From: Candidatus Woesebacteria bacterium RBG_16_42_24
GTDB lineage: Bacteria > Patescibacteriota > Microgenomatia > UBA8517
Direction of reading: 5' to 3'
Length of the DNA stretch: 64,000 nucleotides
Assembly: GCA_001792115.1 (NCBI GenBank)
Contig: MGFX01000001.1
Location: 122,694 to 186,693 of the forward strand
Positions 36,062-57,280 of the stretch are shown here, piece after piece (positions within the stretch are counted from its first letter, which is position 1; every line of letters begins with the position of its first letter). The translations under genes were made by a program, and so were the position numbers. Below the pieces are notes generated by a model. It saw only the letters and a list, made by a program, of their open reading frames with translations, did not search any database and was not told the origin of the DNA.

Positions 36062-36113
36062 GGCAAAGGGCAAAATTGCTTTTTTTGTATCTACGCCCTA
36101 AACTTTTAGTGAT

Positions 36114-36434: not shown

Positions 36435-36440
36435 TGATAT

Positions 36441-38840: not shown

Positions 38841-38942
38841 AGAGAAGATATTACGATATTAAGATACAAAGATATAAAGTGCTTTTAACACTCAAGTGAT
38901 GTTTTTTATTTTAGAGGTCTGTAGTATTATGAAATAATCACC

Positions 38943-40679: not shown

Positions 40680-40697
40680 TTAAAAAGGAATTTATTT

Positions 40698-40850
40698 ATG
40701 GATGATAATAAAAATATACCTAAATTTTCAAAGAGTAAATCTAAAGACATAACTAGGGAAAAACAAGAATTAAATCCGGATGAAGATTCCGGGCCCCTAG
40801 AAGATGAAACTAAACCAGGAGTAATAAAAGCGGGAGAACTTCCAGAATAA
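40698..40850 (+). CDS. small hydrophilic hypothetical protein (50 aa; below ORF-track cutoff)
   Basis: AAAAGGA Shine-Dalgarno-like 8 nt upstream of ATG; MDDNKNIPKFSKSKSKDITREKQELNPDEDSGPLEDETKPGVIKAGELPE. Confidence 0.25.
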   Translation: MDDNKNIPKFSKSKSKDITREKQELNPDEDSGPLEDETKPGVIKAGELPE

Positions 40851-40853
40851 AAG

Positions 40854-43559
40854 TTAACCCCTAGTAGCCTTATCAAAAGCCGCACTCAAAGCCTTCTGTC
40901 CGGCAAGTTTTGCTAGTCTTCTATTAAAGTTAAGTCTACGCTTTATATCTTCCATAGTTATTTCTGTTAGAAATGTTCCTACCTCGGGAGAAAGCTCTTC
41001 CCGCGTTAATGTATTTATGAATTCCGCCAAAACTGTACCTATTGATTTACGCCCTATATCCAAGTCTTTATCGGCAAGGGCCATGTCTATTACACCGACT
41101 GCCCAAAGACCTCTTAGCTGCATAGGGCCCATTTTCTCGATTCTCAGATTTTCAGGTGCATCGGCAGTATTGAAATATACAACAGCTTCTTGCATAAAAG
41201 TCTTGTCCATTTCGGCAATCTTAGGCTTTCTATCTAAAAGAAGTCCACTTAGAAGCTTATATCTTGTCATAATAACGCTGCAATAAAACTGCCAATTGTC
41301 CTCTATTTGACTTATATCCAAATTGTCCACATTCATTTGGGTATCTACCCTAAAAGGAAGCCTTTCCCGCTGCCTCCCTTTAAATTTCTTTGTTTGTTTA
41401 TCCTCTTGGGTCCATCTTAACCACGACGTTCCAAACCCCCTAATTTCATCCTCGTGTACTTGCGGGCCCCTTATTCTACCCTTGCTTCTCCTGGCTTCCC
41501 TCCACTTTTTCAGACCAAATATTTCAGCTACCTGGTCGTTGCCTACAGTATCTCCTCTATTGAAAACAGAGTCTTCAAGGGTGGCCCGAGATAGTTTTTC
41601 TGCAAGCTGAAGCGACTTTTTAGCGTTTTCTCTTCTTTCTTCTGGAGTATTTCCATCAACACTCTCACTCCTCGCAATTTCCTCTATAAGAAGATTCCTA
41701 ACGGCTTCTTCTATTATTGGGTTTGTTTCTCTAAAAAAATTTACATTAGTGCGCGGCTTGAGTTTTCCTTCTTTGTTTCGTAAATCTTTATCATCTTTTG
41801 GAACCACCCTATCAACCCATTTCATATACTCCTGGTTATCGAAAACTGTATTGCCATCCTTATCTTCGCTTACATCAAAATGGTTTAGTTGCTGAAGTAA
41901 GTCCCACGCCCTGGGCACATCGAGCCCAGGCAATAACTCTCGTTTTAAAAACGTCTCTACTATCTCCCTATTTAACTGGTGCCCCCTTCTCTGAGCTTCT
42001 GCCGCCGCACTTCCAATTGCATATCCATGTCCCACTTTCTCTTCCTCCCTAAAAATCCACCCGTCAGCTTGTTTAATTAGCTCTGAACAGTCGTGTACGG
42101 CAAGCCTGGCTCTAGCTTCTCTCGCGATTCCTTTATCAATTTTTTCTATGGCCCCAAGTGATACCTCTAGCCCCCTTACAATATAGGTATTGCCAAAATC
42201 GAGAGTATCCCTGTTCGAATTCTCTATAGCATCTAATTTCTCTCGAACAAAAGCCCTAAGTTCTTCCACTTTTCCTTCGTATCTTTTAACGTCTATTTGA
42301 TACTCCCCCATAGTCATCCTAGATTGTGATTCGGCGGCACTCCTCATCGCCTCTGCGGCAGCAGTTAACACATCTGCCGATTCTTTAGTCCCTTGTTCCG
42401 ATTCGGGTCTAAATTTCTTCTTTGATAATGACGTCTTGACAAAATCGTGGGGTTCTACTCCCAGCTGGAAAAATGCTTCCCTCTGTACGCGCTTCTCTAG
42501 AAATTTCAAGCCTTCCTCTCCCTCTGATTCTCCGTGCATTTTTAACCACAAAATATCCTCCGGGGATCCCGCCACCATTGAAGGTCGCTTTTTAAATCGC
42601 TTTTCAAAACCGATTTTTCTAATTCTTAGCGCCTCCCCGGCGAATGCCGCACGCAGCATTCCTTCTTCTTCGGGTTTTAGGAAGCCCGTTGTACTTAAGG
42701 CTAAATTTTCTGCGTTAATCCCAAAGTTTTTAACATTGTCGTAAACCTCATCCCAAGTACTATCTCCAAGAATATTTAAATAAGTTTGTGTAATATCTTT
42801 AACAAATGCTTTGTGGTCCTGGTCTCGTTCGCTAAAGTTTTTCCACATCTCGTCCCTTTTTTCCATTGCTTTCTTTCTCGTCTCTTCTGATGTCTCATCG
42901 TCAATAATTATTTTTCGAAGGTCTTTAAAATTATCTGGTAATCTACCATCCTCTTTTGGGGGTTCCTCGGGCGGTTTTTCCGGAGGGCCTCCCTCTCCAC
43001 CAGGAGGAGTGCCTCTAGCTTCTTTTTCCCACCCCCTACTTTTTATCCATCGTGCAACCGCTCCCGGAAACCTTTCGACAAATTCATCTGCGGCATGAAC
43101 AGCTGCACCCCCCAGCGAAACCGGTAGGGCATTTAGCAAGCCTTCCCATGTTGACGCCTTTCCTTCCTTCTCAAGCTCCTCAATGTAGCGCATAAGGATT
43201 TTGCCCTGCCAGTGATGGCCCTCTGTCTCACTAATCTCATTTCTATTTACAAGCCCTTCTATAGTGTCGTAAGACCCTTGTAGAACTTCTTTGCTCACCA
43301 TGACATCTGGCCTTCTAGCGAGGCTATGAATTTCTACTTGAAGTGTCTCATTTTTAATATTATCGACCTCTTCTCGATTCTTAACTAACCATGGAGCCCA
43401 CTCTTCTCCCTCCGGTCCCTCAACCCGCCGATGGGGTAAAGATTGGTGTGGGTTGACAGGATTAGCCATAGCCCTTTTTCGAATCTCCCCAATTGAAGCA
43501 CCTTTTGATTCAATAATAATTTCGGGGCCTTTGCCCCCTCCGCCTTCTGCCATATCCAT
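40854..43559 (-). CDS. large acidic cytoplasmic hypothetical protein
   Basis: 901 aa single ORF, opposite strand within the T4SS-like locus; no recognisable motif. Confidence 0.4.
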   Translation of the reverse strand: MDMAEGGGGKGPEIIIESKGASIGEIRKRAMANPVNPHQSLPHRRVEGPEGEEWAPWLVKNREEVDNIKNETLQVEIHSLARRPDVMVSKEVLQGSYDTIEGLVNRNEISETEGHHWQGKILMRYIEELEKEGKASTWEGLLNALPVSLGGAAVHAADEFVERFPGAVARWIKSRGWEKEARGTPPGGEGGPPEKPPEEPPKEDGRLPDNFKDLRKIIIDDETSEETRKKAMEKRDEMWKNFSERDQDHKAFVKDITQTYLNILGDSTWDEVYDNVKNFGINAENLALSTTGFLKPEEEGMLRAAFAGEALRIRKIGFEKRFKKRPSMVAGSPEDILWLKMHGESEGEEGLKFLEKRVQREAFFQLGVEPHDFVKTSLSKKKFRPESEQGTKESADVLTAAAEAMRSAAESQSRMTMGEYQIDVKRYEGKVEELRAFVREKLDAIENSNRDTLDFGNTYIVRGLEVSLGAIEKIDKGIAREARARLAVHDCSELIKQADGWIFREEEKVGHGYAIGSAAAEAQRRGHQLNREIVETFLKRELLPGLDVPRAWDLLQQLNHFDVSEDKDGNTVFDNQEYMKWVDRVVPKDDKDLRNKEGKLKPRTNVNFFRETNPIIEEAVRNLLIEEIARSESVDGNTPEERRENAKKSLQLAEKLSRATLEDSVFNRGDTVGNDQVAEIFGLKKWREARRSKGRIRGPQVHEDEIRGFGTSWLRWTQEDKQTKKFKGRQRERLPFRVDTQMNVDNLDISQIEDNWQFYCSVIMTRYKLLSGLLLDRKPKIAEMDKTFMQEAVVYFNTADAPENLRIEKMGPMQLRGLWAVGVIDMALADKDLDIGRKSIGTVLAEFINTLTREELSPEVGTFLTEITMEDIKRRLNFNRRLAKLAGQKALSAAFDKATRG

Positions 43560-43624
43560 ATTTTCCCATTTTTAGGCTTTTTTTGCAAAAAATGACTTGT
43601 GAAAAAGCATAGTACTTGAATTGA

Positions 43625-43700
43625 AGTGTTCACGGGGTAAGCTAGAAACTAGTGCATAGTACATAGTTTATAGGCGATAGTACAAAGTACATAGTCCAAA
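43625..43700. repeat. AGTGCATAGTACATAG-family palindromic element, left arm
   Basis: CTAGTGCATAGTACATAGTTTATAGGCGATAGTACAAAGTACATAGTCC; inverted partner at 44100-44145 (TCTATGCACTTTGTTCTTTGCACTACGTACTA) on the other side of the 4HB gene; same family at 31375-31470 and 53133-53210. Confidence 0.6.
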
Positions 43701-43714
43701 GAAAAAATAAACCA

Positions 43715-44098
43715 ATGGCGGAACCTGTCCAAAAAACTAGCTATAAAAACTTAATAGTTTATCAGAAGGCAAAAGCTCTAACGACAGATGTCCTTAGTTA
43801 TTTCTCAGAACATAAGCTACCTTACACAAAAGAATTCTTAATAAGACAATTATTCCGATCCGTTAGTTCAGTTGGGGCAAATATTGCTGAAGGCTACGGA
43901 AGGCATTATCAAGGAAGCCTAAGGCAATTCTTCGCCATCGCACGAGGTTCGAGTTTTGAGTCAGATTACTGGCTAGAGATTCTTCAGGAAATGGGAGAAT
44001 TTGACGGGAAAATAATATCAGATTTTATTAACAGAAACACAGAGCTTTCAAAAATGTTGACAAGTTTGATGAAAAAGACAGACGTTTCGCGTCAATAG
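43715..44098 (+). CDS. four-helix-bundle protein (TIGR02436 family)
   Basis: 127 aa; YKNLIVYQKAKALT..V......LPYTKEFLIRQLFRSVSSVGANIAEGYGR. Confidence 0.7.
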   Translation: MAEPVQKTSYKNLIVYQKAKALTTDVLSYFSEHKLPYTKEFLIRQLFRSVSSVGANIAEGYGRHYQGSLRQFFAIARGSSFESDYWLEILQEMGEFDGKIISDFINRNTELSKMLTSLMKKTDVSRQ

Positions 44099-44149
44099 TC
44101 TATGCACTTTGTTCTTTGCACTACGTACTAATTACTATTTACTAAATTA

Positions 44150-45286
44150 ATGGAACAACAACACCCGATACCGCAACAAATCTCCTCTTACCAATTCCGA
44201 CTGGTGGGGGATATGACCCTCAAGCAATTCCTGCAAGTCGGCGGAGGCATGTTAATTGCCCTAATTATTTACTCAACTCCAATCATTGGACTTATTAAGT
44301 GGCCTCTTGTAATTATTTCTGCCTTAACAGGCGCGGCCCTTGCGTTCCTGCCTTTCCAAGAGAGGCCCCTAGAGAAATGGATTTTTGCTTTCCTTCGCTC
44401 AATCTATTCCCCAACCCTTTTTTATTGGAAACGTCTGCCCTCCGAAACCGCTTTTTTCCAAGAACAACCCACAACCCTACCCACCCCCTCGGTAGTTACC
44501 CCGCCGCCTCCCCCCGGGTATCCTGAACTGGCTATAGAAATCACTCCTCCTGTCGCCCCTGCTGCCCCTCTTCCAGCCGGAAGTCCTCAAGGTTTGACTG
44601 CCAAGCCACCCCTTATGGTGCCAACAATTGCCCCTCTGGGTTTTCCTTCATCGGGGCCGGTGTCCCAGGCCCCGAAAGCTCCAGTGGAGCTTGAACCGGG
44701 ATTAACAATCTTTCCTAACCTTGAGGAAGCAGAAAAAACTTTCTTGAGTAAAATCACGGGGCTATTTAGTCTTGCCCCAACCTTGCCTACCAATGAAGGT
44801 CCCGTTAGCGAGGAAGAGAAAAAAGGGCGCCTGAATGTCGTTCCATCAAAGCCAATCAAAATTGAGCCCATCCATGAGGAAAAAGAGGTCCCCGAAGAAC
44901 CCGCACTAGAACCTGTTTATGTTTCTGTTGCACCAACCTTAACTCCCACAAGGAAGTTAGCCGAGGAATTTGCGCAATTTAGTGAGGACGCCGCTCCTCC
45001 CTTTCCTCCCAGTCTTCCAAATGTGATTGTAGGTCAAGTTATGGACTCAAATAAAAAAATCGTAGAGGGAGCAATACTTGAAATTAAAGATTCTGCGGGA
45101 AGGCCCGTAAGAGCACTCAAAAGCAATAAACTAGGACATTTTATGATCGTCACTCCTCTAACTAACGGCCGCTATACAATAGAAATCGAAAAAAATGGGT
45201 TTATCTTTGATACTGTAAGTTTTGACGCGCTGGGAAACGTCATTCCGCCGATAGCGATCAAGGCCAAGGAGATAACCAATGCCTAA
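44150..45286 (+). CDS. PrgI-family (VirB3-like) T4SS membrane protein with Pro-rich linker and C-terminal CarboxypepD_reg-like beta-sandwich domain
   Basis: N-terminal ~100 aa: QFRLVGDMTLKQFLQVGGGMLIALIIY...LPFQERPLEKWIFAFLRSIYSPTLFYWKR matches the PrgI family pattern; followed by PPPPGYPELA... linker and GQVMDSNKKIVEGAILEIKDSAGRPV...GRYTIEIEKNGF domain; overlaps start of VirB4 gene. Confidence 0.55.
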   Translation: MEQQHPIPQQISSYQFRLVGDMTLKQFLQVGGGMLIALIIYSTPIIGLIKWPLVIISALTGAALAFLPFQERPLEKWIFAFLRSIYSPTLFYWKRLPSETAFFQEQPTTLPTPSVVTPPPPPGYPELAIEITPPVAPAAPLPAGSPQGLTAKPPLMVPTIAPLGFPSSGPVSQAPKAPVELEPGLTIFPNLEEAEKTFLSKITGLFSLAPTLPTNEGPVSEEEKKGRLNVVPSKPIKIEPIHEEKEVPEEPALEPVYVSVAPTLTPTRKLAEEFAQFSEDAAPPFPPSLPNVIVGQVMDSNKKIVEGAILEIKDSAGRPVRALKSNKLGHFMIVTPLTNGRYTIEIEKNGFIFDTVSFDALGNVIPPIAIKAKEITNA

Positions 45287-48023
45287 ACTATCTTTTCCTA
45301 CTCTCCCTATTGCGAACCCTTTCAAGGTACCTGATACTCCGATTATTGCCACCTCCCAGGACTTACTACCAATAGCAGACATTGACCAAGATGTTGTGGT
45401 TTACAAAGAAGGTGGCGCGGCATTGGTGGTTGAGACTACTTCTTTAAATTTTGGACTTCTTTCGGAGAAGGAGCAGTATGCCGTAATTGCGGCATATGCG
45501 GCACTCCTTAACTCCCTTTCTTTCCCAATTCAAATTCTGATCCGCTCCCAGAGAAAAGATATTAGCCACTATATGGAATATCTCGCTCAGGCAGCCAGGA
45601 AGGGTATGGATCCCAAACTTGCCAAGATAATGGAGGGGTATAAACTCTTCATCGTTGACGCCGTAAAAAAGAAAAATGTTCTGGGTAAAAAATTCTATAT
45701 AATAATCCCCTTTAGTCCTCTTGAGTTGGGTTTGGCTAAATCCATAAGCTCCCTTACCAGGTCCTCCGGCCCCCTTCCTTATCCCAAAGCATATGTAATT
45801 AAGAAGGCGAAAGACATCCTTTATCCCAGGCGCGACCACTTAATCAGACAGGGGGGGAGGCTGGGAATTAAACTAAGGCAACTTAGCACAAAGGAGCTTG
45901 TTGAGCTCTACTACAACATATTTAATCCCCCACCACCGGCTACTAAAAAGATGGAGGAATTTGCCCCGCGCGAGAGCGGTGGTTTGCCAGATTTTCTAAA
46001 AGCCGGCGCGGGTCTTCTTGGAGGCCATAAACCCCCTACCCAATCCCCACCCGAAGCACCAGTCCCGAGCGGACTTGGAGGATCACCGATCCCGAGTGGA
46101 AATGGAGGACCAACGGCCCCGAGCGGACTTGTCCTGAGTAAAATCGAAGGAGTCGAGGGACCAACGGCCCCGAGCAGAGTCGAGGGGCAGATTGGCCCAT
46201 GGGGTGAAAAGCCGAAGGTATTTTCTCCAACAATTTCTCTTGCCCAGAAAAATATGGGCCTTTTGGATGTCATTGCTCCTCAATCAATTGAGATTGATTT
46301 TGACTTTATTAAATTAAACGGCGTCTATATCCGCACTCTCTATACAGCCATTAGACGCAGGTACGCTTCCCCCGGGTGGATTGAGCAAATTATCAATTTT
46401 GATAGTTCTTTGGACATTTCATTTCATATCTATCCAGTCGAGGGTAAAAGCGTACTTGACGACCTCAGACGCAAAATTGCCGAAATGGAGGCGGAAATGG
46501 AAACGGACATTGAAAGAGGCAAAATTGTCAATCCGGTTACTCAGGCTCAGCTGGAGGATGCATTGGCTCTCCAGGAACAATTGGTTAAGGGAATTGAGCG
46601 GTTTTTTGACTTCTCCTTCTATATCAGTATTCCGGCGTCGGACTTAGAGGAGCTTAACCATCTAACTTCCCAAGTAAAATCGACCCTTCGTTCGCTACAG
46701 ATCGAGGGAATTCCGGGCGCCCTTGATTGTGCCGACGCTTTTATCTCAGCCGGGCCATTCGGGTTGGACAAGATGGCCGTAACCAGAAACATGGATACAA
46801 CCAGCCTGGCAACGACTTTCCCGCTAACGAGTGCGGAGTTATCTTCCGACAAAGGAGTACTTTACGGAATAAATTCACAAAACGAGTCTTTCATTATTTT
46901 TGATAGATTCTCCTTGGAAAACTCCAACATGACAATATTTGCCACATCAGGAGCCGGAAAAAGTTATTTTGTAAAGCTCGAGGCCTTAAGAACCTTAATG
47001 CTAGGAGCTGAGATTATCGTCATTGACCCGGAAAGTGAGTATAAGACTTTGGCCGAGGCCGTCGGAGGAGAATTTATTTCCTTCTCCTTCTCCTCCCCTT
47101 CAAAAATTAACCCATTTGATTTGTCAGCTGTATATGAAGAGGGTGAGAACTCGTTGGGACTTAAGATTCTGTCCCTCCACTCTCTTTTTAAGGTCATTAT
47201 GGGGGCACTCACCCCAACCCAGGAGGCGCTTTTGGATCGGGCCCTAATCATGGCCTATCGCGGAAAAGGAATTACCCAAGACCCAGCCACCCAAAAGAAA
47301 GAGCCCCCCCTAATGGAGGACCTTTATAAATCACTCGTGGGGATGGAAACGCCGGATGCGATGGACTTGGCCGCCAGAATCGAAAAGTTTGTAAAGGGAA
47401 GCTTTGTGGGAATATTTGACCAGCAGACAAATATCGATATTAAAAACTCCTTTACTGTGTTCTCCGTCAAGGACCTTGAGGAAAGCCTTCGGCCTATTGC
47501 TATGTTTATTATTCTTGATTTTATTTGGACCAGGGTTAAAAGGGACCTTAAAAAGAGGGTTTTAATAGTGGATGAGGCCTGGCACATGATGCGCTACCCC
47601 GACTCTGCCCAATTTTTGTGGTCTGTGGTTAAAAGGGCTAGAAAATACTTTCTAGGTTTGACCACCATTACGCAGGACGTGGAGGATTTTTTGGCCCAGG
47701 ATATCGGAAAAGCCATTGTTACAAACTCCGCCCTCCGCGTACTTCTCAAACAGTCCCCGGCCGCAATTGACAATATCGGCCAAGTATTTTACTTGTCTGA
47801 GGGAGAAAAACAGTTGCTTCTTGCCGCAAATATCGGAGAGGGGATCTTTTTCGCCGGTGCTCACCACGCTCCCATTAGGGTTGTAGCCTCGCCCGAAGAG
47901 CACGGCCTAATAACCACCAAGCCGCAAGAGCTTTTGCAAAAAGAGGCGGCGTCTGCCCAAGTCGCCCCTTCTGAAGCCGCATCTATCGCCCAAGCAACTG
48001 TCCAGGGGCTAGGAAACCTTTAA
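45279..48023 (+). CDS. VirB4/TrbE/PrgJ-family type IV secretion ATPase
   Basis: 914 aa; Walker A TIFATSGAGKSYFVK, Walker B VLIVDEAWHMM, CagE/TrbE/VirB4 C-terminal region; Pro/Gly-rich insertion (aa ~230-300). Confidence 0.8.
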   Translation: MPKLSFPTLPIANPFKVPDTPIIATSQDLLPIADIDQDVVVYKEGGAALVVETTSLNFGLLSEKEQYAVIAAYAALLNSLSFPIQILIRSQRKDISHYMEYLAQAARKGMDPKLAKIMEGYKLFIVDAVKKKNVLGKKFYIIIPFSPLELGLAKSISSLTRSSGPLPYPKAYVIKKAKDILYPRRDHLIRQGGRLGIKLRQLSTKELVELYYNIFNPPPPATKKMEEFAPRESGGLPDFLKAGAGLLGGHKPPTQSPPEAPVPSGLGGSPIPSGNGGPTAPSGLVLSKIEGVEGPTAPSRVEGQIGPWGEKPKVFSPTISLAQKNMGLLDVIAPQSIEIDFDFIKLNGVYIRTLYTAIRRRYASPGWIEQIINFDSSLDISFHIYPVEGKSVLDDLRRKIAEMEAEMETDIERGKIVNPVTQAQLEDALALQEQLVKGIERFFDFSFYISIPASDLEELNHLTSQVKSTLRSLQIEGIPGALDCADAFISAGPFGLDKMAVTRNMDTTSLATTFPLTSAELSSDKGVLYGINSQNESFIIFDRFSLENSNMTIFATSGAGKSYFVKLEALRTLMLGAEIIVIDPESEYKTLAEAVGGEFISFSFSSPSKINPFDLSAVYEEGENSLGLKILSLHSLFKVIMGALTPTQEALLDRALIMAYRGKGITQDPATQKKEPPLMEDLYKSLVGMETPDAMDLAARIEKFVKGSFVGIFDQQTNIDIKNSFTVFSVKDLEESLRPIAMFIILDFIWTRVKRDLKKRVLIVDEAWHMMRYPDSAQFLWSVVKRARKYFLGLTTITQDVEDFLAQDIGKAIVTNSALRVLLKQSPAAIDNIGQVFYLSEGEKQLLLAANIGEGIFFAGAHHAPIRVVASPEEHGLITTKPQELLQKEAASAQVAPSEAASIAQATVQGLGNL

Positions 48024-48027
48024 TTAA

Positions 48028-49836
48028 ATGGCAAAAGAAGTCTCTTTAAAAATAACCTACTCACAAGCTCCGGGGGTAAGAAAGCCTACAGTCGAAAAAC
48101 TTCATCAAGATATCAAAGAGGCGGGCTACGGCTTTTTCCAAAAAAACCCAGAATATGGGCCTTCTTTTTTACTCTTTTCCTCGGGTGTAAAAAGTAACCA
48201 ATTAGCAGGTGAGATAAAAAAAGCTCCCGAGAAGGGGCTTGATATTGAAAGCATTTCTCTTCTTGAAGACGTCAACTTAAAATTAAAAACTTTTGAGCAA
48301 GAAAACCCTGAGCTTTTTCGAGACCTGAGCGAAACTTACTACGAAGGCGTTTCTCAAATTGAAATCACCGAGGAGGTCGGGGGTCCAGGACAATATATCT
48401 CTCTTAAGCCTTCCGCTGACAACACATATTATGAATTTTCCCCGGGGCCATCCTTAGACCAAGCAGGAATCGATATTGGCCCCGCCAGAGAGGCCGCCTC
48501 CTTCGCCCTTAACAAAATTGCTGAACCGGTCAAAAAGAAAATTGTCGAAGCCGGAGTGAAAGTCGCTACAAAGGCCGTCACAAAAGCCGCTGTTGGGACC
48601 GCCACAAAAGTAGGGGTACAGGCTGCGGCTCAAGCCGTCGGTTCAACCGTTCCGATAATAGGAAATATCATCGCTTTTATTACCACAACTGTTATAGCTG
48701 GCATTATCGACCGGGCTTTAATCGCAGCCAAAAAAAGGGCAAGGGACGTTGAGGACGCCGTAGGGGGGGCTATTATAGCCTCCTTGCAGTTTTTGGGTCT
48801 TCTGGGGGGAATCCTTTCGGCAACTTTTTCAACAATTCTTGGAATGGTCATCGTCATAATCATCTCCATACCGTTCACCATCGCCTATATACTCTTCATC
48901 ATTAACTCCGGCGCCTACCTTGTACCACCCTCACAAATTTTAGCTCCTGGTGAAAATCCCTATATAGAGATAACAAAAGTGGCTAGCGAAACGGAATTCG
49001 AAAATTCAGATTTACCAATTAGCGTCACTTATACAATTACCGTCACTCCTTTAAGGGGGTCTTTAACAAACATCTCTATTTCCCACGTATGCGAAATCTT
49101 AAGCCGCAGGCCTACCGACGATTGTCCCGCCCCTACTGATCCAGCACCAGTTTTGATATCACCAGCGACTCCTTATGTATATACGTATACGGTAACTTAC
49201 ACTCAGGCGGATGCTGATTATCGCGATTCCTTGGTCCTCAATACTTTTTCTGTTACCGCAGACACCGACGAAGTTTCCCAAACTACAGCAACGGGGGCGG
49301 CCTCGGTCATTATCGGAAATCCTCCCACGGAGTGTTATACTTTTGATGGTAGCTGGGACGCCAGTTCTCAAGCACAAGGTTACAAAAACACGCTACTAGG
49401 TGCCATTACCACCCTCACTTCTAACTATACTCCTTTTGCCCAAAAGGTCTGTACAGGCGGACAGCTAGTACGGCTTGAATACACACAAAACTTAGGTTGT
49501 CCTGGCGCCTGGGCTTGTGCCTTCAGAAGCAGTGTAATAAGATTTAATGGAGGCGGACTGAATAATCCCAATAGTGCCTTGTATATTTTGACTCACGAAT
49601 CCGGTCATATTGTTAACTACAGACTGGACTCCCTTTACCAACAATATGAAGATTGGCCGGGGGTAGATCAGGAAAGACCGTCTATCTGTTCCTATGCTCC
49701 AGCAAGAACGGAGGCTGCGGAGGCGTTTGCCGAATCGGCTGCATTATATGTAGCGTCGACCCGCTGCACAACCCCGTCTACCTACCCCTCTCTTTACCCT
49801 GCACATTACTCATTTGCTGACCAAGTATTATTCTAG
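48028..49836 (+). CDS. membrane protein with C-terminal HExxH zinc-metallopeptidase-like domain (candidate T4SS cell-wall-remodelling component, PrgK/VirB1 functional analog)
   Basis: 602 aa; central TM bundle (aa ~180-300), C-terminal ...ALYILTHESGHIVNYRL...E... (HExxH + downstream Glu); position after VirB4. Confidence 0.4.
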   Translation: MAKEVSLKITYSQAPGVRKPTVEKLHQDIKEAGYGFFQKNPEYGPSFLLFSSGVKSNQLAGEIKKAPEKGLDIESISLLEDVNLKLKTFEQENPELFRDLSETYYEGVSQIEITEEVGGPGQYISLKPSADNTYYEFSPGPSLDQAGIDIGPAREAASFALNKIAEPVKKKIVEAGVKVATKAVTKAAVGTATKVGVQAAAQAVGSTVPIIGNIIAFITTTVIAGIIDRALIAAKKRARDVEDAVGGAIIASLQFLGLLGGILSATFSTILGMVIVIIISIPFTIAYILFIINSGAYLVPPSQILAPGENPYIEITKVASETEFENSDLPISVTYTITVTPLRGSLTNISISHVCEILSRRPTDDCPAPTDPAPVLISPATPYVYTYTVTYTQADADYRDSLVLNTFSVTADTDEVSQTTATGAASVIIGNPPTECYTFDGSWDASSQAQGYKNTLLGAITTLTSNYTPFAQKVCTGGQLVRLEYTQNLGCPGAWACAFRSSVIRFNGGGLNNPNSALYILTHESGHIVNYRLDSLYQQYEDWPGVDQERPSICSYAPARTEAAEAFAESAALYVASTRCTTPSTYPSLYPAHYSFADQVLF

Positions 49837-49855
49837 ATAAGATTGTAGGAGGTAA

Positions 49856-50428
49856 ATGAAAATCATAGAATTTATTAAAAAAAGAAAACTAATCCTGATT
49901 CTTGTTCTGGTTCTTACCGCATGGATAGCAAATTCTATTCTTTCAAGAATCCCTGAGCGGCCCCAGGGTCCGGGGGAGCCCGGTGTTAGCTACAGGAATC
50001 TAGTTCCCGGGGTAAGTAGCCGATCTGATGTTATCGAAAAAATGGGAAACCCTGTCGATCAAGCCGCCAAAGGAGAAGAAATTTTACTTAGTTTTAAGTC
50101 TACAAGTCCTACAAGAACCCATGAAGCGATAGTAGACAGCGGCAACACTCTTTCTTTCATAAAGGAGATTGTCTCTGTAAATGACGATAAACATATCGCT
50201 GATATCACCTCCCAACATGGAGAAGCCCCCCATACCCTTTACGGGCCGCACTCTATCAATGGTTTTGATCTGTTCGTCTATCCCGATAAGGGCCTTGCCT
50301 ATATCGGTAATCCTTATGGCACCCAAGGAACTATTCTGGAAATCTGGTATTTCCCACCAACGACAATTGAAAATTTTAAGTCGACTTGGGCACCGGGCTA
50401 TTCGAATACTTATCAACCGTCTCAATAA
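49856..50428 (+). CDS. membrane-anchored secreted hypothetical protein
   Basis: 190 aa; N-terminal TM; last gene of the + strand block. Confidence 0.35.
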   Translation: MKIIEFIKKRKLILILVLVLTAWIANSILSRIPERPQGPGEPGVSYRNLVPGVSSRSDVIEKMGNPVDQAAKGEEILLSFKSTSPTRTHEAIVDSGNTLSFIKEIVSVNDDKHIADITSQHGEAPHTLYGPHSINGFDLFVYPDKGLAYIGNPYGTQGTILEIWYFPPTTIENFKSTWAPGYSNTYQPSQ

Positions 50429-50432
50429 ATCT

Positions 50433-51545
50433 CTAAACCTGAACCCTTACGGGCATTATAAGATGAAGAAAATTGACGTCGGAGGGATCGGTAAAAACTC
50501 CGGGAGCATTCTCGTTGGAAAGCCCTATGTTAACATCACCACCGCTTACGGCGTGCAAGAATTCCTCTAAAAATCTATAGTTAAAAGAAATTTCAAACCC
50601 GCCCGTCGGTAACCCTTCAACTTTTGCCTCAACCTGACTTTCTTGCCTCCCCGCCATCTGGCTTTCAGCGGCAATTACTACTCCGTCCTTTTTAAGTGAA
50701 AACCTAACTATGTTGGCTGAATCCCTGGCAAAAACCGAGGCAAGCTTTACGGCTCTTAAAAGATCATCTTTATCAAGTGATACCTTGATATTTGTCTCTT
50801 TTGGAATTATTTTTTCGAACTCCGGAAAATCACCTTCTAAAATCCGCGTTGATAAAATCGTATCCCCTACTCCAAAAACCACCTGATTATCTTCTTCTCT
50901 GAAAGATAGTTTTAAATCTTGCTCCTCAATCCCTATTCTTGCAAGCTCCGACAAGGCGCTTTTAGGAAGTATTACTTTTTTTTCTTGATGAAAGCCTGCG
51001 TCTTGTAATTTTTTTTGAGAAAGCCTAAAACCATCAGTCGCCACAAGTGAGAGCCCCCCTTTTTTAAATAGAAAGAGAACTCCTGTCAAAATCGGTCGGG
51101 TTTCGTCAGTTGAGGCGGCAAAGACAACTTGAGAAAGAGCCTGTAAAAGCGCTTCTTTCGGGAAGGAATATGAAGTCTTGCCCAAAGATTGAGGGACTTC
51201 GGGAAAGTCTACTGCATTCATTCCGGAAACACTCGAGTTAGTGTTGGATGATGAAATTTCCAAAATTTCTTTTTCAGAATTGAGCATTATTGCACCGGGG
51301 GTAAAATTTACTACAAGTTCGCTAATTACTCGCGACGGGATAGTAATTTCTCCTTCGCTAGATACTTTTGCTCCAATAGAAATGGCCACAGAAACTTCGA
51401 GATTAGTCGAGCAGACTAGGAGTTTGTTTTTCTTGGCCGAGAGGTAGATATTTCCGAGAACAGGCAGTTGAGCCCGAGAACTTGCAAAGCGTGAAGCGGT
51501 TGAAAGTGCTCTTGAAAAATTTTCCTGAAGAACTTCTAATTTCAT
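50433..51545 (-). CDS. dnaN: DNA polymerase III beta sliding clamp
   Basis: 370 aa; three-domain clamp pattern, MKLEVLQENFSRAL N-terminus; downstream of dnaA. Confidence 0.85.
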   Translation of the reverse strand: MKLEVLQENFSRALSTASRFASSRAQLPVLGNIYLSAKKNKLLVCSTNLEVSVAISIGAKVSSEGEITIPSRVISELVVNFTPGAIMLNSEKEILEISSSNTNSSVSGMNAVDFPEVPQSLGKTSYSFPKEALLQALSQVVFAASTDETRPILTGVLFLFKKGGLSLVATDGFRLSQKKLQDAGFHQEKKVILPKSALSELARIGIEEQDLKLSFREEDNQVVFGVGDTILSTRILEGDFPEFEKIIPKETNIKVSLDKDDLLRAVKLASVFARDSANIVRFSLKKDGVVIAAESQMAGRQESQVEAKVEGLPTGGFEISFNYRFLEEFLHAVSGGDVNIGLSNENAPGVFTDPSDVNFLHLIMPVRVQV

Positions 51546-51744
51546 AAAAATAAGCTTTACCCTTTTATCATATATTAACTAGTAGTTCTAGTAGTAGGGG
51601 CGGTGGATATGTTGAAAACTAGCCCCCTTTTGGAACAGTCTTCGGTAGAAATTCGTGTGTACATTGAGCTAGTCGAAATGTTGATATATTTGTGGATAAA
51701 AGTAAGGCCAGTGTTGATAAGTTGATAAGCGGGCGGAGACTTCC
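51546..51744. promoter_or_regulatory. putative oriC segment (dnaA-dnaN intergenic) with DnaA boxes
   Basis: AT-rich 199 bp; perfect DnaA box TGTGGATAA (51691-51699, = TTATCCACA rc), near-boxes GGTGGATAT, GTTGATAAGTTGATAAG. Confidence 0.55.
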
Positions 51745-53130
51745 TCAAAGGCTATTTTTTATCCCCAATAAATCCTCACGAATTTGCACATCCTCGCTGG
51801 CCAAATGTGTGATTTTTTCAACAGCGTGCATAACGGTTGTGTGATCACGCCCTCCGACCAGGCGTCCAACCTCGGTGAGAGGGAGCCCGAGCTCTCTTCT
51901 TAGAAGATACATAAGTATTTGTCGTGGTCTGGCGATGGGGCGGACCCGCGACTCACCCAGCAAATATTTTTTACCCACAGAGAAGTGTTTAGCAACCGCC
52001 GAAATGACATCCAAGGGTTTTGCCCTTATTTTCAGGGCTATCGACTCCGCCCCTTTACCAATTAGGGAATTTACAAGATCTTCGGAAATTTCTGTTTTTC
52101 TAAGGCGCGCTTGACTTGCGAGTTTGACCAAAAACCCTTCAATAGGCCTGGCAGCGTCAATGTTTGCTGCGATAACTTGTACCAGATCCATGGGAAGCTC
52201 AATGCCCCTCTCTTTAGATTTAATTTGGGTAATAGCACAGCGCAGTTCAAAGTCGGGAGGCGCAATGTCTACAATTAGACCTGCCTCAAAGCGGCTTTTT
52301 AAGCGTTCCTCGAGTTTTGAAATATCTGACGGGGGCTTATCCGAAGTCATAATTACTTGTCCACCGGCGTTAGTTAAGGCGTTAAAAGTGTGGAAGAATT
52401 CTTCTTGGACCGCGTCTTTCCCTGCGATGAATTGAATGTCGTCTATAAGAAGCGCTTTAAGTCTTCTATATTTGTCGCGAAACGCTGTCGTTGTTTTGTT
52501 TCTGATTCCTTCGACGATGCCATTTGTAAATTCTTCCCCAGAAACAAAGAGAATTTTTGCCAAAGGATTCTCTGCAAGGAGGCAGTATCCGATTGCGAGC
52601 ATTAAATGTGTTTTGCCGACCCCTACTCCACCCCAAATAAAAAGCGGGTTATAAGCACTTCCAGGTGTATTTGAAACGGCTTCAGCCGCCGCGTGGGCCA
52701 TTTGATTAGATGAGGAGACGGCGAAATTCTCAAATGTAAAACCTGGCCTGATATGTGTTCGCAAGAAGGCCTCATTAATTTCCTCTTTGTCGTCTTTCTG
52801 AAAAAGTGGGGTGTCGAGGGTGTGCTCAAAAGTCTTTTTATCAGGGTTTTGCCTAACTACAAACGTTAAGTCGCAGGAGGCTTCTAAGGATTTGACAAGT
52901 GAATCTTGGAGCATTCCAAAATAACGACTTTCAATTGTTGTTTTTATAAAGGGGGAAGCGCAGCCGACCTCTATGACAAACCTAGTTCCCTGTTTCTCGA
53001 TTTTTGCAAGGAATGTCTGCGAGAACCACGTTGAGAAAATTGCGGGGGAAACTGAAACTTTAATACTTTCGAGTGTATCGCGCCAGAGTTTTTTAGTATC
53101 AAGCATGATAGTAGATAGTGCAGAGTACAT
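51745..53130 (-). CDS. dnaA: chromosomal replication initiator DnaA
   Basis: 461 aa; AAA+ Walker A GGVGVGKTHL, Walker B LLIDDIQF, C-terminal DNA-binding helix-turn-helix. Confidence 0.9.
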   Translation of the reverse strand: MYSALSTIMLDTKKLWRDTLESIKVSVSPAIFSTWFSQTFLAKIEKQGTRFVIEVGCASPFIKTTIESRYFGMLQDSLVKSLEASCDLTFVVRQNPDKKTFEHTLDTPLFQKDDKEEINEAFLRTHIRPGFTFENFAVSSSNQMAHAAAEAVSNTPGSAYNPLFIWGGVGVGKTHLMLAIGYCLLAENPLAKILFVSGEEFTNGIVEGIRNKTTTAFRDKYRRLKALLIDDIQFIAGKDAVQEEFFHTFNALTNAGGQVIMTSDKPPSDISKLEERLKSRFEAGLIVDIAPPDFELRCAITQIKSKERGIELPMDLVQVIAANIDAARPIEGFLVKLASQARLRKTEISEDLVNSLIGKGAESIALKIRAKPLDVISAVAKHFSVGKKYLLGESRVRPIARPRQILMYLLRRELGLPLTEVGRLVGGRDHTTVMHAVEKITHLASEDVQIREDLLGIKNSL

Positions 53131-53132
53131 AG

Positions 53133-53210
53133 TGCATAGAAGGATTTTTAGTAGGACAGGGGTTAATGTTTTTTACTTTGCACTATGCACTAATGACTAT
53201 GTACTATTTA
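53133..53210. repeat. AGTGCATAGTACATAG-family palindrome in dnaA-rpmH intergenic region
   Basis: GTAGATAGTGCAGAGTACATAGTGCATAG ... CTTTGCACTATGCACTAATGACTATGTACTAT inverted arms; followed by perfect DnaA box TTATCCACA at 53216-53224. Confidence 0.6.
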
Positions 53211-53248
53211 TTGAGTTATCCACAATTAGTCAACCCCCAAAATACACG

Positions 53249-53356
53249 AAATTCCAAATTCTAATTTCAAAATTCCAGTTAATTATCAAAATTCAAATTT
53301 GACAATTCGAAACTTTGCAACAAATTTGGAAACTGGAAACTGGAAATTGGAAACTA
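53249..53356. repeat. heptamer-iteron palindromic element upstream of rpmH
   Basis: AATTCCAAATTCTAATTTCAAAATTCCAGTTAATTATCAAAATTCAAATTTGACAATTCGAAACTTTGCAACAAATTTGGAAACTGGAAACTGGAAATTGGAAAC. Confidence 0.7.
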
Positions 53357-53368
53357 TATAATATCAAA

Positions 53369-53509
53369 GTGCCTAAAAGAACTTTTCAACCAAATAAGGC
53401 AAAGAGAGCCAAAACCCATGGTTTTAGAAATAGAATGGCCTCTCGTTCTGGCCGCGAAGTACTTGCTAGAAGAAGACAAAGGGGTCGGAAACTTCTTACC
53501 CCAAGCTGA
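53369..53509 (+). CDS. rpmH: 50S ribosomal protein L34
   Basis: GTG start gives (M)[45 protein letters not shown]; ORF-track N-terminal extension ([14 protein letters not shown]) is read-through of the heptamer repeat from a TTG. Confidence 0.8.
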
Positions 53510-53618
53510 AATTCTCCGTGGGTTTAAAACCCACGGTTTTTCACCTAAGTGAGAATTACATACGGGTTCAATTCATCCGTAAACTAAAGTTTACGGTTTT
53601 CTTGAATCCTTTAATAAA

Positions 53619-53948
53619 ATGCTTGCCAGAAAGTTCATCCTCACAGGGGAGACAGAATTCGCTAGAGTAAAGCAAGAAGGCAGAGTTATTCAGTCGGAAA
53701 GTTTTGGCACATCTTTTATTAAAAAAGAGGGTTTGTCGAAATTTGGATTTATAGTTTCGAATAAAATTAGTAATTCTGCGGTTGCCCGTAATAGAATAAA
53801 AAGGGCACTGAAGGAAGCGGTGAGACAAACGATTGATGAAAAGGGGAGGGGGCTTGCGGTGGTTTTCTTTGCAAAACCACAAGCATTGAGGCGATCAAAC
53901 GAAGAAATAGCCAATGAAGTAAAAAGGGTTCTAGCCAAAATTATCTAA
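53619..53948 (+). CDS. rnpA: ribonuclease P protein component
   Basis: 109 aa; basic, RNR motif region ([19 protein letters not shown]); rpmH-rnpA synteny. Confidence 0.8.
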
Positions 53949-53949
53949 A

Positions 53950-54174
53950 ATGGAAAAATCAGCAACATCTTTAATTTCTTTTTACAAAAAGGTTATCTCC
54001 CCTATTTTGGTGATTAATTTTGGCCACGCCTGTAGATATACACCAACCTGTAGTGAGTATTCCAAAGAAGCAATTAAGAGGTTCGGACTGGTCAAAGGGA
54101 TAACCCTTTCTTTAAAGAGAATTTCAAGGTGCAACCCATTTGGCAGATTTGGATACGACCCAGTACCTAGTTAA
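53950..54174 (+). CDS. yidD: membrane protein insertion efficiency factor YidD
   Basis: 74 aa; [10 protein letters not shown].....CR..PTCSEY...AI...G..KG..L...RI.RC.P canonical YidD. Confidence 0.8.
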
Positions 54175-54265
54175 AAATTCCAAATGCCAAATTCCAATTT
54201 CCAAATAATTATCAAATTAGCAAATTCGAATTTAACTGGAAACTGGAGACTGGAAACTGGAAATT
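54173..54265. repeat. heptamer-iteron palindromic element upstream of yidC
   Basis: TTCCAAATGCCAAATTCCAATTTCCAAATAATTATCAAATTAGCAAATTCGAATTTAACTGGAAACTGGAGACTGGAAACTGGAAATT. Confidence 0.7.
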
Positions 54266-54272
54266 ACCGAGT

Positions 54273-55085
54273 ATGAATATTTTTACCACCCTACTTACCC
54301 AACCACTGGCCAACGGATTGGTGCTTTTTTACAAAGTCTTGGGCGACAACATGGGCTTGGCCATAATAGGCTTCAGCCTTTTTTTAAGAGTGATCCTTAA
54401 CCCCCTAACTAAGCCATATATGCAGTCGATGAAAAGAATGAAAGACCTTGCCCCGCGACTCGAAAAATTGAAGGCAAAATATAAAGACGATAAGAAAGGA
54501 ATGGCTCTCGCGCAGGCCGATCTATATAAACAAGAGAAAATTAATCCAGGAGCGGGGTGCCTCCCCTACCTACTGCAGATAGTAGTTCTTATTGCCTTCT
54601 TTAATGTATTTACCAGAACACTTTCTCCGGATGGAGAAATTGCCGGTCGTTTTAACGAGCTACTTTATGGGCCGCTAAAATTTTCTGCCGACCAAATCGT
54701 TAACACGAGATTCCTCTATCTTGACATAACCAAACCAGATGCCTTCCCGGTCTCGGGTCTTCCATTTGCCATTCCAGGACCGATACTTATCTTGGCGGCT
54801 CTTATACAGTTCTTTTCAGCTAAAATGATGGTTCCCTACGTTGCGGCAGAAGAGAAGCTGGCAAAAAAGACTAAAGAGGGAGCCGACGATATCCAGGTGG
54901 CTATGCAAAAAAGTACGATTTATACTTTTCCCCTTTTTACGGTGATTTTTGGTCTTAGATTTCCCTCGGGACTGGCTCTTTATTGGCTTTTGTTCTCCGC
55001 TTCTCAAGCTTATCAGCAGTATAGGACTTCGGGTTGGGGCGGAACGACCCCTTGGCTAAAGAAGGTAGGTTTGCTAAAATCTTGA
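54273..55085 (+). CDS. yidC: membrane protein insertase YidC (short form)
   Basis: 270 aa; 5-TM core with conserved P..LLQ...L..F/ Y.LLFSASQ motifs; follows yidD. Confidence 0.8.
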   Translation: MNIFTTLLTQPLANGLVLFYKVLGDNMGLAIIGFSLFLRVILNPLTKPYMQSMKRMKDLAPRLEKLKAKYKDDKKGMALAQADLYKQEKINPGAGCLPYLLQIVVLIAFFNVFTRTLSPDGEIAGRFNELLYGPLKFSADQIVNTRFLYLDITKPDAFPVSGLPFAIPGPILILAALIQFFSAKMMVPYVAAEEKLAKKTKEGADDIQVAMQKSTIYTFPLFTVIFGLRFPSGLALYWLLFSASQAYQQYRTSGWGGTTPWLKKVGLLKS

Positions 55086-55088: not shown

Positions 55089-55565
55089 ATGGTACAAAAG
55101 AAAAAAGAATCTAAGGGTGAGACGGCTAAGAAGTTAACCGAAGAGCTTTTAGAATTAATGGGAGTAGCGGCGAGTATCGAGGTTGCCGAGGGTGCTGAAA
55201 ATGATGCCCTTGTTGTTGACGTCTCCTCTGAAAATGAAACCGGTCTTTTAATAGGGAGACACGGGGTCACACTTCTTTCTTTACAGGCGGCAATTGGAAT
55301 GATGCTAAAGCAAAAGCTTGGGGAGTGGGTTCGTGTGATTGTCAATGTCGGCGACTGGAGGCAAAAAGAGGAGGAACACCTGGGGGGGTTGGCGGAGGCA
55401 GCAGCAGAAAGAGTAAAGACGACAGGGGAGCCCCAACCGATTTACAATCTTACACCGAGCCAAAGAAGAATTGTTCATTTGAAACTATCCACCGACCCGA
55501 GCATAGCAACAGAATCTCAAGGTGAAGGAGAAGAACGATATCTGGTTGTTAAGAAAAAAGGATAG
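55089..55565 (+). CDS. jag: Jag/SpoIIIJ-associated KH + R3H RNA-binding protein
   Basis: 158 aa; C-terminal R3H (LTPSQRRIVHLKLS); canonical yidC-jag synteny. Confidence 0.7.
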   Translation: MVQKKKESKGETAKKLTEELLELMGVAASIEVAEGAENDALVVDVSSENETGLLIGRHGVTLLSLQAAIGMMLKQKLGEWVRVIVNVGDWRQKEEEHLGGLAEAAAERVKTTGEPQPIYNLTPSQRRIVHLKLSTDPSIATESQGEGEERYLVVKKKG

Positions 55566-56826
55566 CAAGATGTCTAAGCTGGGAAGGCTCTATCTTGCCC
55601 AGCAAATAGTTTTTGCTATTCTCATCTTTTTAATCCCAACCCAGCTGGGTTACCACATTTGGCTCCCGAGTTCTTACTTTTTTGGAATAAGGGTTGACTA
55701 TTTTGTACCTACAATTTATCTGACCGACCTTGCCACACTGGCATTATTTGGGCTTTATCTTTTACAGAAAATTAGAAGCAAAGAACCCGTATTTAAAAAG
55801 CGCGACTTTATTTATCTCTTATTGTTTCTGGGCCTGGCGCTTTTAAATACATTCTTGGCTACGTCTTTCGAACCATCTTTAATAAAATGGATGAAATATA
55901 CAGAGCTTTTTTTGTTGGCGCTTTATATAAAAAACCAATACAAGCTAGAGGCAAATTCGTGGGTGTTATTGCCTTTACTGCTTTCTGGACTTTTCTTTTC
56001 CTCAATTGGAATCGCCCAATTTATTTCTCAGAAGACTCTCGGAGGCCCGTTTTATTTATTAGGGGAAAGGGCATTCAACGCGGGTACGCCGGGCATCGCT
56101 TTAGCCCGCTATTTTGGTTCTTATCTGCTTAGGGCATATTCCACCTTTTCTCATCCAAATTCCTTCGCTGCATTTTTAGGATTTCTGTTAATAGCTGGTT
56201 ATTTTTTTATACCCAAAGGACCTCTGGCCAAGATACTCCGATGGGTTTCATTAGGTTTGGGAATAACCGCGCTCTATCTGACTCTTTCAAAGTGGGTATA
56301 TATTTCTCTGCTTATGATTTTTTCGACGATATATTTAAACAAACAGAGAGTAATTGATATTAGAAAAATTATTCCTTGGATTTTGGGATCAGTTGTTGTC
56401 GCAAGCTTGCTACTAACTATTTTTTCAAACAAAATTTTAGAGGCGGATAGACCCTTTTCCGAGGCCTTTTTAGAAAGACTTTATCTTGCCAAAAGGGCAG
56501 GAGACATTGTAGTAAAAAATCCCCTCATTGGTGTTGGTTTAAATAATTACATACTTAATTTACCAAGGAGCGACGTTGTTGGCTTCTCATGGGAACTTCA
56601 ACCGGTACATAATATTTTCCTTTTAACGTTTTCTGAGGTAGGACTTATCGGACTTCTGGTGTTTACCCTGCTTCTTGCGAAGGGTTTGCAGAATTCAAAA
56701 GGGCTCGTGTTTTGGGCGCTTTTATTTATTGTTTTTTCAGGATTCGCCGACCATTATTGGTTGACTCTACAACAAAATCAGTTAATTTTCACTCTAGTCC
56801 TGGGCCTTGCCTTAAGAGAAACTTGA
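55522..56826 (+). CDS. O-antigen ligase/polymerase-like (Wzy_C family) polytopic membrane protein
   Basis: 434 aa; ≥10 TM; large periplasmic loop region with conserved H/R pattern (FSHPNSFAAFLG); assignment by architecture. Confidence 0.4.
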   Translation: MKEKNDIWLLRKKDSKMSKLGRLYLAQQIVFAILIFLIPTQLGYHIWLPSSYFFGIRVDYFVPTIYLTDLATLALFGLYLLQKIRSKEPVFKKRDFIYLLLFLGLALLNTFLATSFEPSLIKWMKYTELFLLALYIKNQYKLEANSWVLLPLLLSGLFFSSIGIAQFISQKTLGGPFYLLGERAFNAGTPGIALARYFGSYLLRAYSTFSHPNSFAAFLGFLLIAGYFFIPKGPLAKILRWVSLGLGITALYLTLSKWVYISLLMIFSTIYLNKQRVIDIRKIIPWILGSVVVASLLLTIFSNKILEADRPFSEAFLERLYLAKRAGDIVVKNPLIGVGLNNYILNLPRSDVVGFSWELQPVHNIFLLTFSEVGLIGLLVFTLLLAKGLQNSKGLVFWALLFIVFSGFADHYWLTLQQNQLIFTLVLGLALRET

Positions 56827-56863
56827 GTCTTTTTTGACCCACTACTTATGTTAAACTGACTCC

Positions 56864-57280
56864 GTGGAAAGCGCGATTTATATAAATTGCGATGGAGGAG
56901 CAAGAGGAAACCCTGGCCCGGCCGCCTCGGCCTTTGTTGTTAAAAAAGAAGGCAAAGGTATTTACAAGCAACAGAAATATTTAGGAAAAACGACAAACAA
57001 TGTCGCTGAATATCAGGCCGTGATCTCAGCCCTTAAATGGCTCACTGAAAATAAAAAAATAGCCGGTGGAGCCGACATAATTTTTCTCTTGGACTCGGAA
57101 CTAATTACAAAACAACTTATGGGAATTTATAAAACAAAAAATCCTACACTAAAAAAACTATTCACGTCGGCGAAGCTTTTAGAACAGGGATTGTCGAATA
57201 AAATTTATTACAAAAGAATCCCTCGGGAAAAAAATATGGACGCGGACTATTTGGTAAATACAGTTTTAAGAAACTATTGA
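56864..57280 (+). CDS. rnhA: ribonuclease H (type 1)
   Basis: 138 aa; IYINCDGGARGNPGPAA.., NNVAEYQAVISAL, DSELITKQL, C-terminal D..VN catalytic residues. Confidence 0.75.
   Translation: MESAIYINCDGGARGNPGPAASAFVVKKEGKGIYKQQKYLGKTTNNVAEYQAVISALKWLTENKKIAGGADIIFLLDSELITKQLMGIYKTKNPTLKKLFTSAKLLEQGLSNKIYYKRIPREKNMDADYLVNTVLRNY

Follow-up and report, generated by a model that had tools for sequence, protein, structure and literature searches.

The stretch of DNA considered here (hereafter, the window) comprises 64,000 nucleotides of contig MGFX01000001.1 from Candidatus Woesebacteria bacterium RBG_16_42_24 and contains the dnaA gene together with a very probable chromosomal replication origin, oriC. 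The minus strand carries dnaA (51745–53106), whose 453-residue product starts MLDTKKLW, matches Pfam DnaA domains I, III, and IV, and has the sequence of OGM16051.1, and downstream of it dnaN (50433–51545), whose 370-residue product, the DNA polymerase III beta clamp, matches three Pfam beta-clamp domains and is exactly OGM15811.1. Both accessions belong to Candidatus Woesebacteria RBG_16_42_24/RBG_19FT_COMBO_42_9. The plus strand carries, in the opposite direction, rpmH (encoding L34, with a GTG start; 53369–53509), rnpA (53619–53948), yidD (53950–54174), yidC (54273–55085), and jag/KhpB (55089–55565), each identified by a Pfam match. An initial annotation, made from the sequence alone, had described this divergent dnaN–dnaA and rpmH–rnpA–yidD–yidC–jag order, which is borne out by the Pfam identities.

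The closest solved structure to the DnaA protein is that of Bacillus subtilis DnaA (8btg; E = 5e-99), the Walker A motif is conserved, and the two proteins are full-length orthologues. Position 53106 is almost certainly the real start of dnaA and is preferred because it is the NCBI start and the point from which the N terminus aligns with B. subtilis DnaA. The longest open reading frame (ORF) would start at 53130, adding eight codons; this form was rejected, as the extra codons would run through one arm of a palindrome (see section Heptamer-Repeat Elements and PF05635 Cassettes). Among species-representative genomes, the closest DnaA is 49% identical (Candidatus Amesbacteria), and closer relatives come from metagenome contigs, with identities of 78% (locus L081), 63% (L082), 60% (L083), and 54% (L084). 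In the following, L001 is an Amesbacteria locus, and L013, L022, and L037 are Firmicute controls.

DnaA Boxes and Predicted Unwinding Site in the dnaA–dnaN Spacer

The 199-bp dnaA–dnaN spacer (51546–51744) has a GC content of 39% and the dnaA–rpmH spacer one of 30%, compared with 43% for the window. A perfect DnaA box lies in each spacer, TGTGGATAA at 51691–51699 in the former and TTATCCACA at 53216–53224 (plus strand) in the latter; the window has no perfect box besides these two (0.41 expected), and the initial annotation had located both correctly. Boxes with at most one mismatch number 22 in the window (13.5 expected). Near-boxes had also been reported in the dnaA–dnaN spacer, and this region indeed holds six boxes with at most two mismatches, all in one orientation and starting at 51602, 51610, 51679, 51691, 51712, and 51720. 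These six same-strand boxes, which fall within 127 bp, form the densest cluster of the window; when the window was simulated 300 times with a first-order Markov model, six same-strand boxes never fell within 130 bp, and the maximum was five. The cluster, read on the minus strand, consists of a tandem pair, GGTGGATAT (51602–51610) and TGTTGAAAA (51610–51618), with starts 8 nt apart; TGTTGATAT (51679–51687; two mismatches) beside the perfect box; and, at 51712–51728, the tandem boxes TGTTGATAA (one mismatch) and AGTTGATAA (two mismatches), which include two copies of GTTGATAA. A further near-box at 51759, TTATCCCCA, is located in the last dnaA codons, is conserved as coding sequence, and was excluded from the origin boxes.

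A basal unwinding system (BUS) has been defined as a DnaA box with at most two mismatches, a spacer of 0–16 bp that is often GC-rich, and at least three DnaA-trios, which are NAN trinucleotides with the consensus 3′-GAT-5′ and with the best match nearest the box; a tandem box pair beside the trios is the most frequent arrangement (57%) (PMC8287927). At 51580–51597 (plus strand), the dnaA–dnaN spacer contains the array TAGTAGTTCTAGTAGTAG, which reads TAG TAG TTC TAG TAG TAG, where 5′-TAG-3′ is equivalent to 3′-GAT-5′. Three consecutive TAG trios (51589–51597) are nearest the boxes, and two further TAG trios follow past the single TTC. The GC-rich spacer GGGC (51598–51601), which was checked in the sequence, separates the array from GGTGGATAT, 4 nt away, and thus from the tandem pair (51602–51618). 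On the far side of the trios lies AT-rich DNA of low stability (51546–51579; 21% GC), a candidate duplex-unwinding stretch that runs into the dnaN start codon. By nearest-neighbor calculation, this stretch is among the lowest 0.13–0.3% of windows in duplex stability: the 30-nt window from 51563 is among the 0.13% least stable, and the 50-nt window from 51534 is among the ten least stable. When both strands of the window were scanned for a strict BUS pattern (three trios, a gap of 0–16 nt, and a DnaA box with at most two mismatches), a single match was obtained, at 51589–51610, and TAGTAGTAG likewise occurs exactly once. Folding of the dnaA–dnaN spacer as single-stranded DNA revealed nothing special (z = +0.7).

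This layout is kept in relatives. L081 has an identical trio array, and L001, L083, and L007 have near-identical ones; the distal box block ATGTTGATATATTTGTGGATAAAA is identical in L081 and has equivalent boxes in L082–L084; and the tandem boxes at 51712–51728 are conserved in L081–L084. A BUS is present at the orthologous position in L081, L082, L083, L084, and L001, and in other loci of the candidate phyla radiation (CPR). The order dnaA, boxes, GC-rich spacer, trios, AT-rich stretch, dnaN is common to the CPR relatives and to Bacillales/Clostridium controls, in which an almost identical sequence, TAGTAGTAG-GGGC-TGTGGATA-TGTGGATAA (or with TGTTGATAA as the last box), has the same position and orientation; the GGGC/GGGG spacer is also found in L013, L022, and L037. 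Of the 154 loci fetched, 47 show the strict pattern in the first 400 nt downstream of dnaA, compared with six matches in 2.16 Mb of background (0.001 per 410 nt).

Because of the BUS layout, the box cluster, the conservation, and the DnaA orthology, oriC is placed in the dnaA–dnaN spacer. The locus is very probably an ordinary DnaA-dependent chromosomal oriC with a BUS, in which the spacer at 51546–51744 would be the origin, the box upstream of dnaA an operator, and the repeats in the dnaA–rpmH spacer no part of the origin. The initial annotation had recognized the origin neighborhood, and the genes, the box statistics, the strand-composition switch described below, and the relatives all agree with it; its emphasis on the dnaA–rpmH spacer did not stand, and the BUS at 51580–51618 had gone unmentioned. 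It is the trio array and tandem boxes at 51580–51618 that lead to placement of the unwinding site in the dnaA–dnaN spacer rather than the dnaA–rpmH spacer.

Unwinding is predicted at 51546–51597, by a mechanism proposed by homology. ATP-DnaA would bind the six same-orientation boxes (51602–51728), and the tandem pair at 51602–51618, beside GGGC, would steer the DnaA oligomer onto the trios at 51580–51597. The oligomer on the trios would then stretch and open the AT-rich DNA at 51546–51579, upstream of and into dnaN, and helicase would be loaded at the opened stretch.

Upstream DnaA Box, Strand Composition, and Alternative Origins

The perfect box in the dnaA–rpmH spacer overlaps a sigma-70-type promoter directed at dnaA. 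This promoter (53205–53233, minus strand), predicted from sequence and conservation, consists of a −35 element TTGACT (53233–53228), a 17-nt spacer with the box at 53216–53224, and a −10 element TAAATA (53210–53205), and the same −35/box/−10 layout is found in at least 12 CPR loci, including L081, L082, L083, L001, L002, L005, L006, and L085. As the box occupies the −35/−10 spacer of a conserved dnaA-directed promoter, it is most likely an autoregulatory dnaA operator, which fits better than an origin box cluster; DnaA bound at 53216–53224 would repress dnaA transcription.

Boxes on the two sides of dnaA might instead cooperate in a bipartite origin, for example by DnaA-mediated looping, both sides being needed, as in the incAB plus incC regions of B. 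subtilis or oriC1/oriC2 of Helicobacter pylori. Perfect boxes do flank dnaA on both sides, relatives strongly conserve the upstream one, and AT content is higher in the dnaA–rpmH spacer than in the other. However, the upstream side has one perfect box instead of a cluster: with at most two mismatches allowed, no second genuine DnaA box is found in the dnaA–rpmH spacer, where the other match, at 53283, belongs to AATTATCAA, the core of a family-A repeat element (see below), and was excluded from the DnaA boxes. This spacer also has no trios, and the position of its box between −35 and −10 is accounted for by autoregulation. A bipartite origin is thus regarded as unlikely, and the upstream box is taken as a probable operator of dnaA.

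Within the window, strand composition changes at the locus. The cumulative GC skew of the window is lowest at 51093, a point in dnaN that is about 450 bp away from the dnaA–dnaN spacer; a minimum far from the locus had been named in the initial annotation as evidence that would speak against an origin here, and over the 64 kb covered no such displacement is seen. Because gene orientation confounds the raw skew, the skew at third codon positions was measured, and it is −0.12 for plus-strand and −0.04 for minus-strand genes to the left of the locus, and +0.07 and +0.14, respectively, to the right. The change is a replication-type switch that is irrespective of the direction of transcription. In 31572–50428, a block made up almost entirely of plus-strand genes, the raw skew tracks gene direction, whereas the third-position skew remains negative. 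A GC-skew inflection near dnaA is the norm among curated genomes (PMC7111523).

The dnaA–dnaN locus could still be inactive as an origin, with its boxes regulating only dnaA and dnaN and the origin lying outside the window. Precedent exists in Escherichia coli, where dnaA is located apart from oriC, and such a placement would accord with the 64-kb span of the analysis and with the plus-strand genes at 31.5–50.4 kb, whose transcription would run head-on into a fork that leaves the site. It is nevertheless very improbable, given that both the skew minimum and the change of sign at third positions fall at the locus, that the BUS signature is highly specific, and that the rpmH/dnaA/dnaN neighborhood is the usual origin site.

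Several points weigh against the assignment of oriC to the dnaA–dnaN spacer. Support for the origin is sequence inference throughout, and the skew spans 64 kb, the contig being about 394 kb long. The two trio-proximal boxes carry two mismatches each, the fourth trio, TTC, has no central A, and the AT-rich stretch extends for just 34 bp before dnaN starts. The plus-strand gene block to the left of the proposed origin, about 19 kb in length, blurs the raw GC skew, and its genes would be transcribed against the fork leaving oriC. In addition, the upstream box may add to initiation, as a bipartite origin would have it.

Heptamer-Repeat Elements and PF05635 Cassettes

Two repeat elements are present in the dnaA–rpmH spacer. 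The first, on the minus strand at 53108–53207, is a heptamer-array hairpin of a family designated B, the AGTGCATAG palindrome, with arms at 53108–53139 and 53175–53207 and a 35-nt loop. It occupies the predicted 5′ untranslated region (UTR) of dnaA, stopping 1 nt short of the ATG, and its RNA fold has an energy of −28.1 kcal/mol (z = −6.6). The second (53249–53356, plus strand; RNA fold z = −3.7) is an element of family A that has no ORF and consists of (AAATTCC)n at 53249–53280, a center beginning with AATTATCAAAATTC, and (TGGAAAC)n at 53327–53356. A promoter scan for rpmH gave TGGAAA-17-TATAAT (10 of 12 positions matching), with the −10 hexamer at 53357–53362. This hexamer ends 6 nt before the GTG start codon (53369), the corresponding spacing in L081, L083, and L001 being 6–7 nt, and rpmH mRNA is predicted to be leaderless because TATAAT is just 6 nt from the GTG.

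Both the palindrome and the heptamer element had been noted in the initial annotation and do exist, but an origin-specific role is contradicted by dispersed copies elsewhere, and what had been taken for a densely structured origin region is better described as elements that happen to have inserted close to promoters. The window contains 12 tandem arrays of period 7, and no or one array of each other period from 4 to 12; nine of the 12 are intergenic, although intergenic DNA makes up 10% of the window. They occur as inverted pairs, in which the proximal arm usually ends about 0–20 nt from a start codon. At least six other intergenic sites in the window carry copies of the heptamer elements, at 28.7, 31.4, 32.7–33.2, 34.1, 43.6–44.1, and 54.2 kb. 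A second family-A element, upstream of yidC (element at 54175–54265, aligned copy at 54166–54275; plus strand), aligns end to end with that at 53249–53356, as do further copies at 28720–28845 (minus strand), at 34085–34236, and in L081. Family B has the form (ATAGTRC)n...(GYACTAT)n, and other copies are found at 31353–31480 and around 43650–44145. A scan of 51300–54400 against Rfam (E ≤ 1) gave only chance-level miRNA-type matches, on the hairpin upstream of yidC.

L081 carries both elements at orthologous positions, and both are absent from the orthologous spacers of L082, L083, L084, and L001, in which the BUS and the promoter box are kept. The elements are therefore lineage-specific insertions, which would have entered the dnaA 5′ UTR and the rpmH promoter in the line to which this genome and its closest relative belong. 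The possibility that unwinding takes place in the dnaA–rpmH spacer, with the heptamer arrays and palindrome acting as origin repeats (iterons, duplex-unwinding element, or cruciform), appeals to the lower GC content of that spacer, its strong hairpin potential, and its perfect box, but can hardly be credited, because the repeats are neither confined to nor conserved at the origin, being dispersed over many non-origin sites and missing from four relatives that keep the BUS, and because DnaA-trios are absent. The palindrome and heptamer element are instead dispersed elements that look like ORF-less versions of IVS-like cassettes (IVS, intervening sequence; see below), and they are not origin machinery. 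Period-7 arrays in L001 that lie inside an ORF for a membrane protein are a different phenomenon and were set aside.

In one window copy per family, the inverted arrays enclose a small gene (family A, 32788–33165; family B, 43715–44098), giving full-length cassettes at 32729–33217 (family A) and 43650–44145 (family B). Both enclosed genes encode PF05635/TIGR02436 proteins (four helix bundle/23S rRNA intervening sequence [IVS] proteins) with a mutual identity of only 27%, so that a separate, divergent PF05635 paralogue goes with each heptamer family. Arrays also accompany orthologues or homologues in ten other loci (L161, L163, L165, L167, and L169–L174). Family-B orthologues (50–77% identity) in seven other loci all lie upstream of genes for a type IV secretion system (T4SS), prgI–traC–virB4, and all seven are bordered by heptamer arrays on one side or both; the arms covary, CATAGTG/CACTATG being replaced by ACAAAGA/TCTTTGT. 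The family-A homologues, which lie between (TTTCCAR)n and (TGGARAC)n arrays, have differing contexts, either upstream of yceG–rpoB or next to bipA. An inner inverted repeat, AATTATCAA/TTGATAATT, is found in L172 and in the family-A copy of the window, and a TATAAT-like hexamer just precedes the ATG of the next gene in L172 and L173. In 8 of 12 loci, the 90-nt flanks of the ORF can pair with each other, with ΔG between −36 and −45 kcal/mol (z between −4 and −7).

It is possible, and is put forward tentatively, that the elements in the dnaA 5′ UTR and the rpmH promoter belong to a family of PF05635 heptamer cassettes, of which no description was found in the library searched, that puts dnaA expression under the control of the element. 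The cassettes may act as IVS-like stems in RNA, whose processing by an enzyme such as RNase III would yield mRNAs with short leaders or none; they may instead offer the cognate four-helix-bundle protein an array of binding sites, or may be mobile DNA. If the proposal is true, the cassettes provide the uncharacterized PF05635 family with a sequence partner and suggest a reason for heptamer arrays at start codons. Potential novelty at this locus is confined to the cassette family, the origin itself being of a known kind.

A third heptamer family (AAAGTNA/TTTTGAA-type) is present at 4054–4096 and 29607–29728, at intergenic or gene-start sites, and no associated four-helix-bundle gene was seen for it in the window. 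Between rpmH and rnpA, a terminator scan detected two tandem terminator-like hairpins (53516–53603, plus strand), each followed by a T-run; the palindrome AAAACCCAYGGTTTT occurs both in the first hairpin and at 53411–53425, within rpmH.

T4SS-like genes directly adjoin dnaN (44150–49836) and include, by Pfam match, a PrgI-family gene (44150–45286) and a gene for a 914-residue VirB4/TraG P-loop ATPase (45279–48023). Patescibacteria T4SS genes tend to adjoin dnaA, dnaN, rpmH, and rnpA (PMC12102498), and the virB4-type and PrgI genes beside dnaN match this synteny. A 27-nt tandem repeat of 2.6 copies within the VirB4-like ORF (46063–46131) encodes a Pro/Gly/Ser-rich repeat. Downstream of jag, a gene for an O-antigen-ligase-like membrane protein is followed by an RNase H gene (55522–57280), and the same pair is also found near dnaA in L001 (246–1938), with heptamer periodicity inside the membrane-protein ORF.

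Comparison with Known Systems

In 23S rRNA IVSs, a PF05635 ORF lies inside a stem that is cleaved by RNase III. The cassettes resemble these in that a PF05635/TIGR02436 ORF is enclosed by stem-forming inverted repeats, as in the two full-length copies of the window, and in that ORF-containing and ORF-less versions coexist; they differ in being located between protein-coding genes, instead of in 23S or 16S rRNA, and in having arms made of heptamer arrays. PF05635 is functionally uncharacterized and is present in rRNA intervening sequences, including those of CPR bacteria (PMC11270868).

Heptamer repeats near start codons have precedents in the STRR (short tandemly repeated repetitive) sequences of cyanobacteria. 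The TAACTGA repeats of Beggiatoaceae, cyanobacteria, and Bacteroidetes are located 1 nt upstream of start codons and are almost all direct repeats, with no reported link to a PF05635-type gene (PMC4679880). As in the present elements, TAACTGA and STRR repeats are tandem 7-nt units in 3–6 copies that are intergenic and end a few nucleotides from start codons. In contrast, the arrays described here form inverted pairs that give long hairpins, fall into at least three heptamer families, and in full-length copies enclose a PF05635 gene. A link between four-helix-bundle/S23 proteins and heptamer repeats was not found in the library searched.

A DnaA-box operator in the dnaA promoter, and hence dnaA autoregulation, is classical in E. 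coli (dnaAp) and B. subtilis. The predicted operator shares with these a consensus DnaA box that overlaps the core dnaA promoter in a divergent rpmH–dnaA region, and differs in that the box lies exactly within the 17-nt spacer, a placement that is conserved across many CPR lineages.

The BUS of B. subtilis was reportedly described by Richardson in 2016 and 2019. The proposed origin resembles its incC/BUS region in its location between dnaA and dnaN, in the succession of boxes, a GC spacer of about 4 bp, 5′-TAG-3′ trios, AT-rich DNA, and dnaN, and in the tandem box pair beside the trios. It differs in that the proximal boxes are more degenerate and the fourth trio is TTC, in that the AT-rich stretch is short and abuts dnaN, in that one box upstream of dnaA stands in place of the incA/incB clusters, and in that the host is an uncultivated CPR bacterium; neither Patescibacteria nor Candidatus taxa are mentioned in the main text of the study that defined the BUS (Pelliciari 2021; PMC8287927). 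A precise, if unsurprising, prediction of oriC is thereby obtained for an uncultivated Microgenomates/Woesebacteria genome, down to the boxes, trios, and unwinding stretch, and would be useful for setting genome start points, for growth-rate estimates from peak-to-trough ratios (PTR), and for future replicon engineering. Seen beside the Firmicute controls, the BUS is of Firmicute type, and many CPR lineages have kept it with hardly a letter changed.

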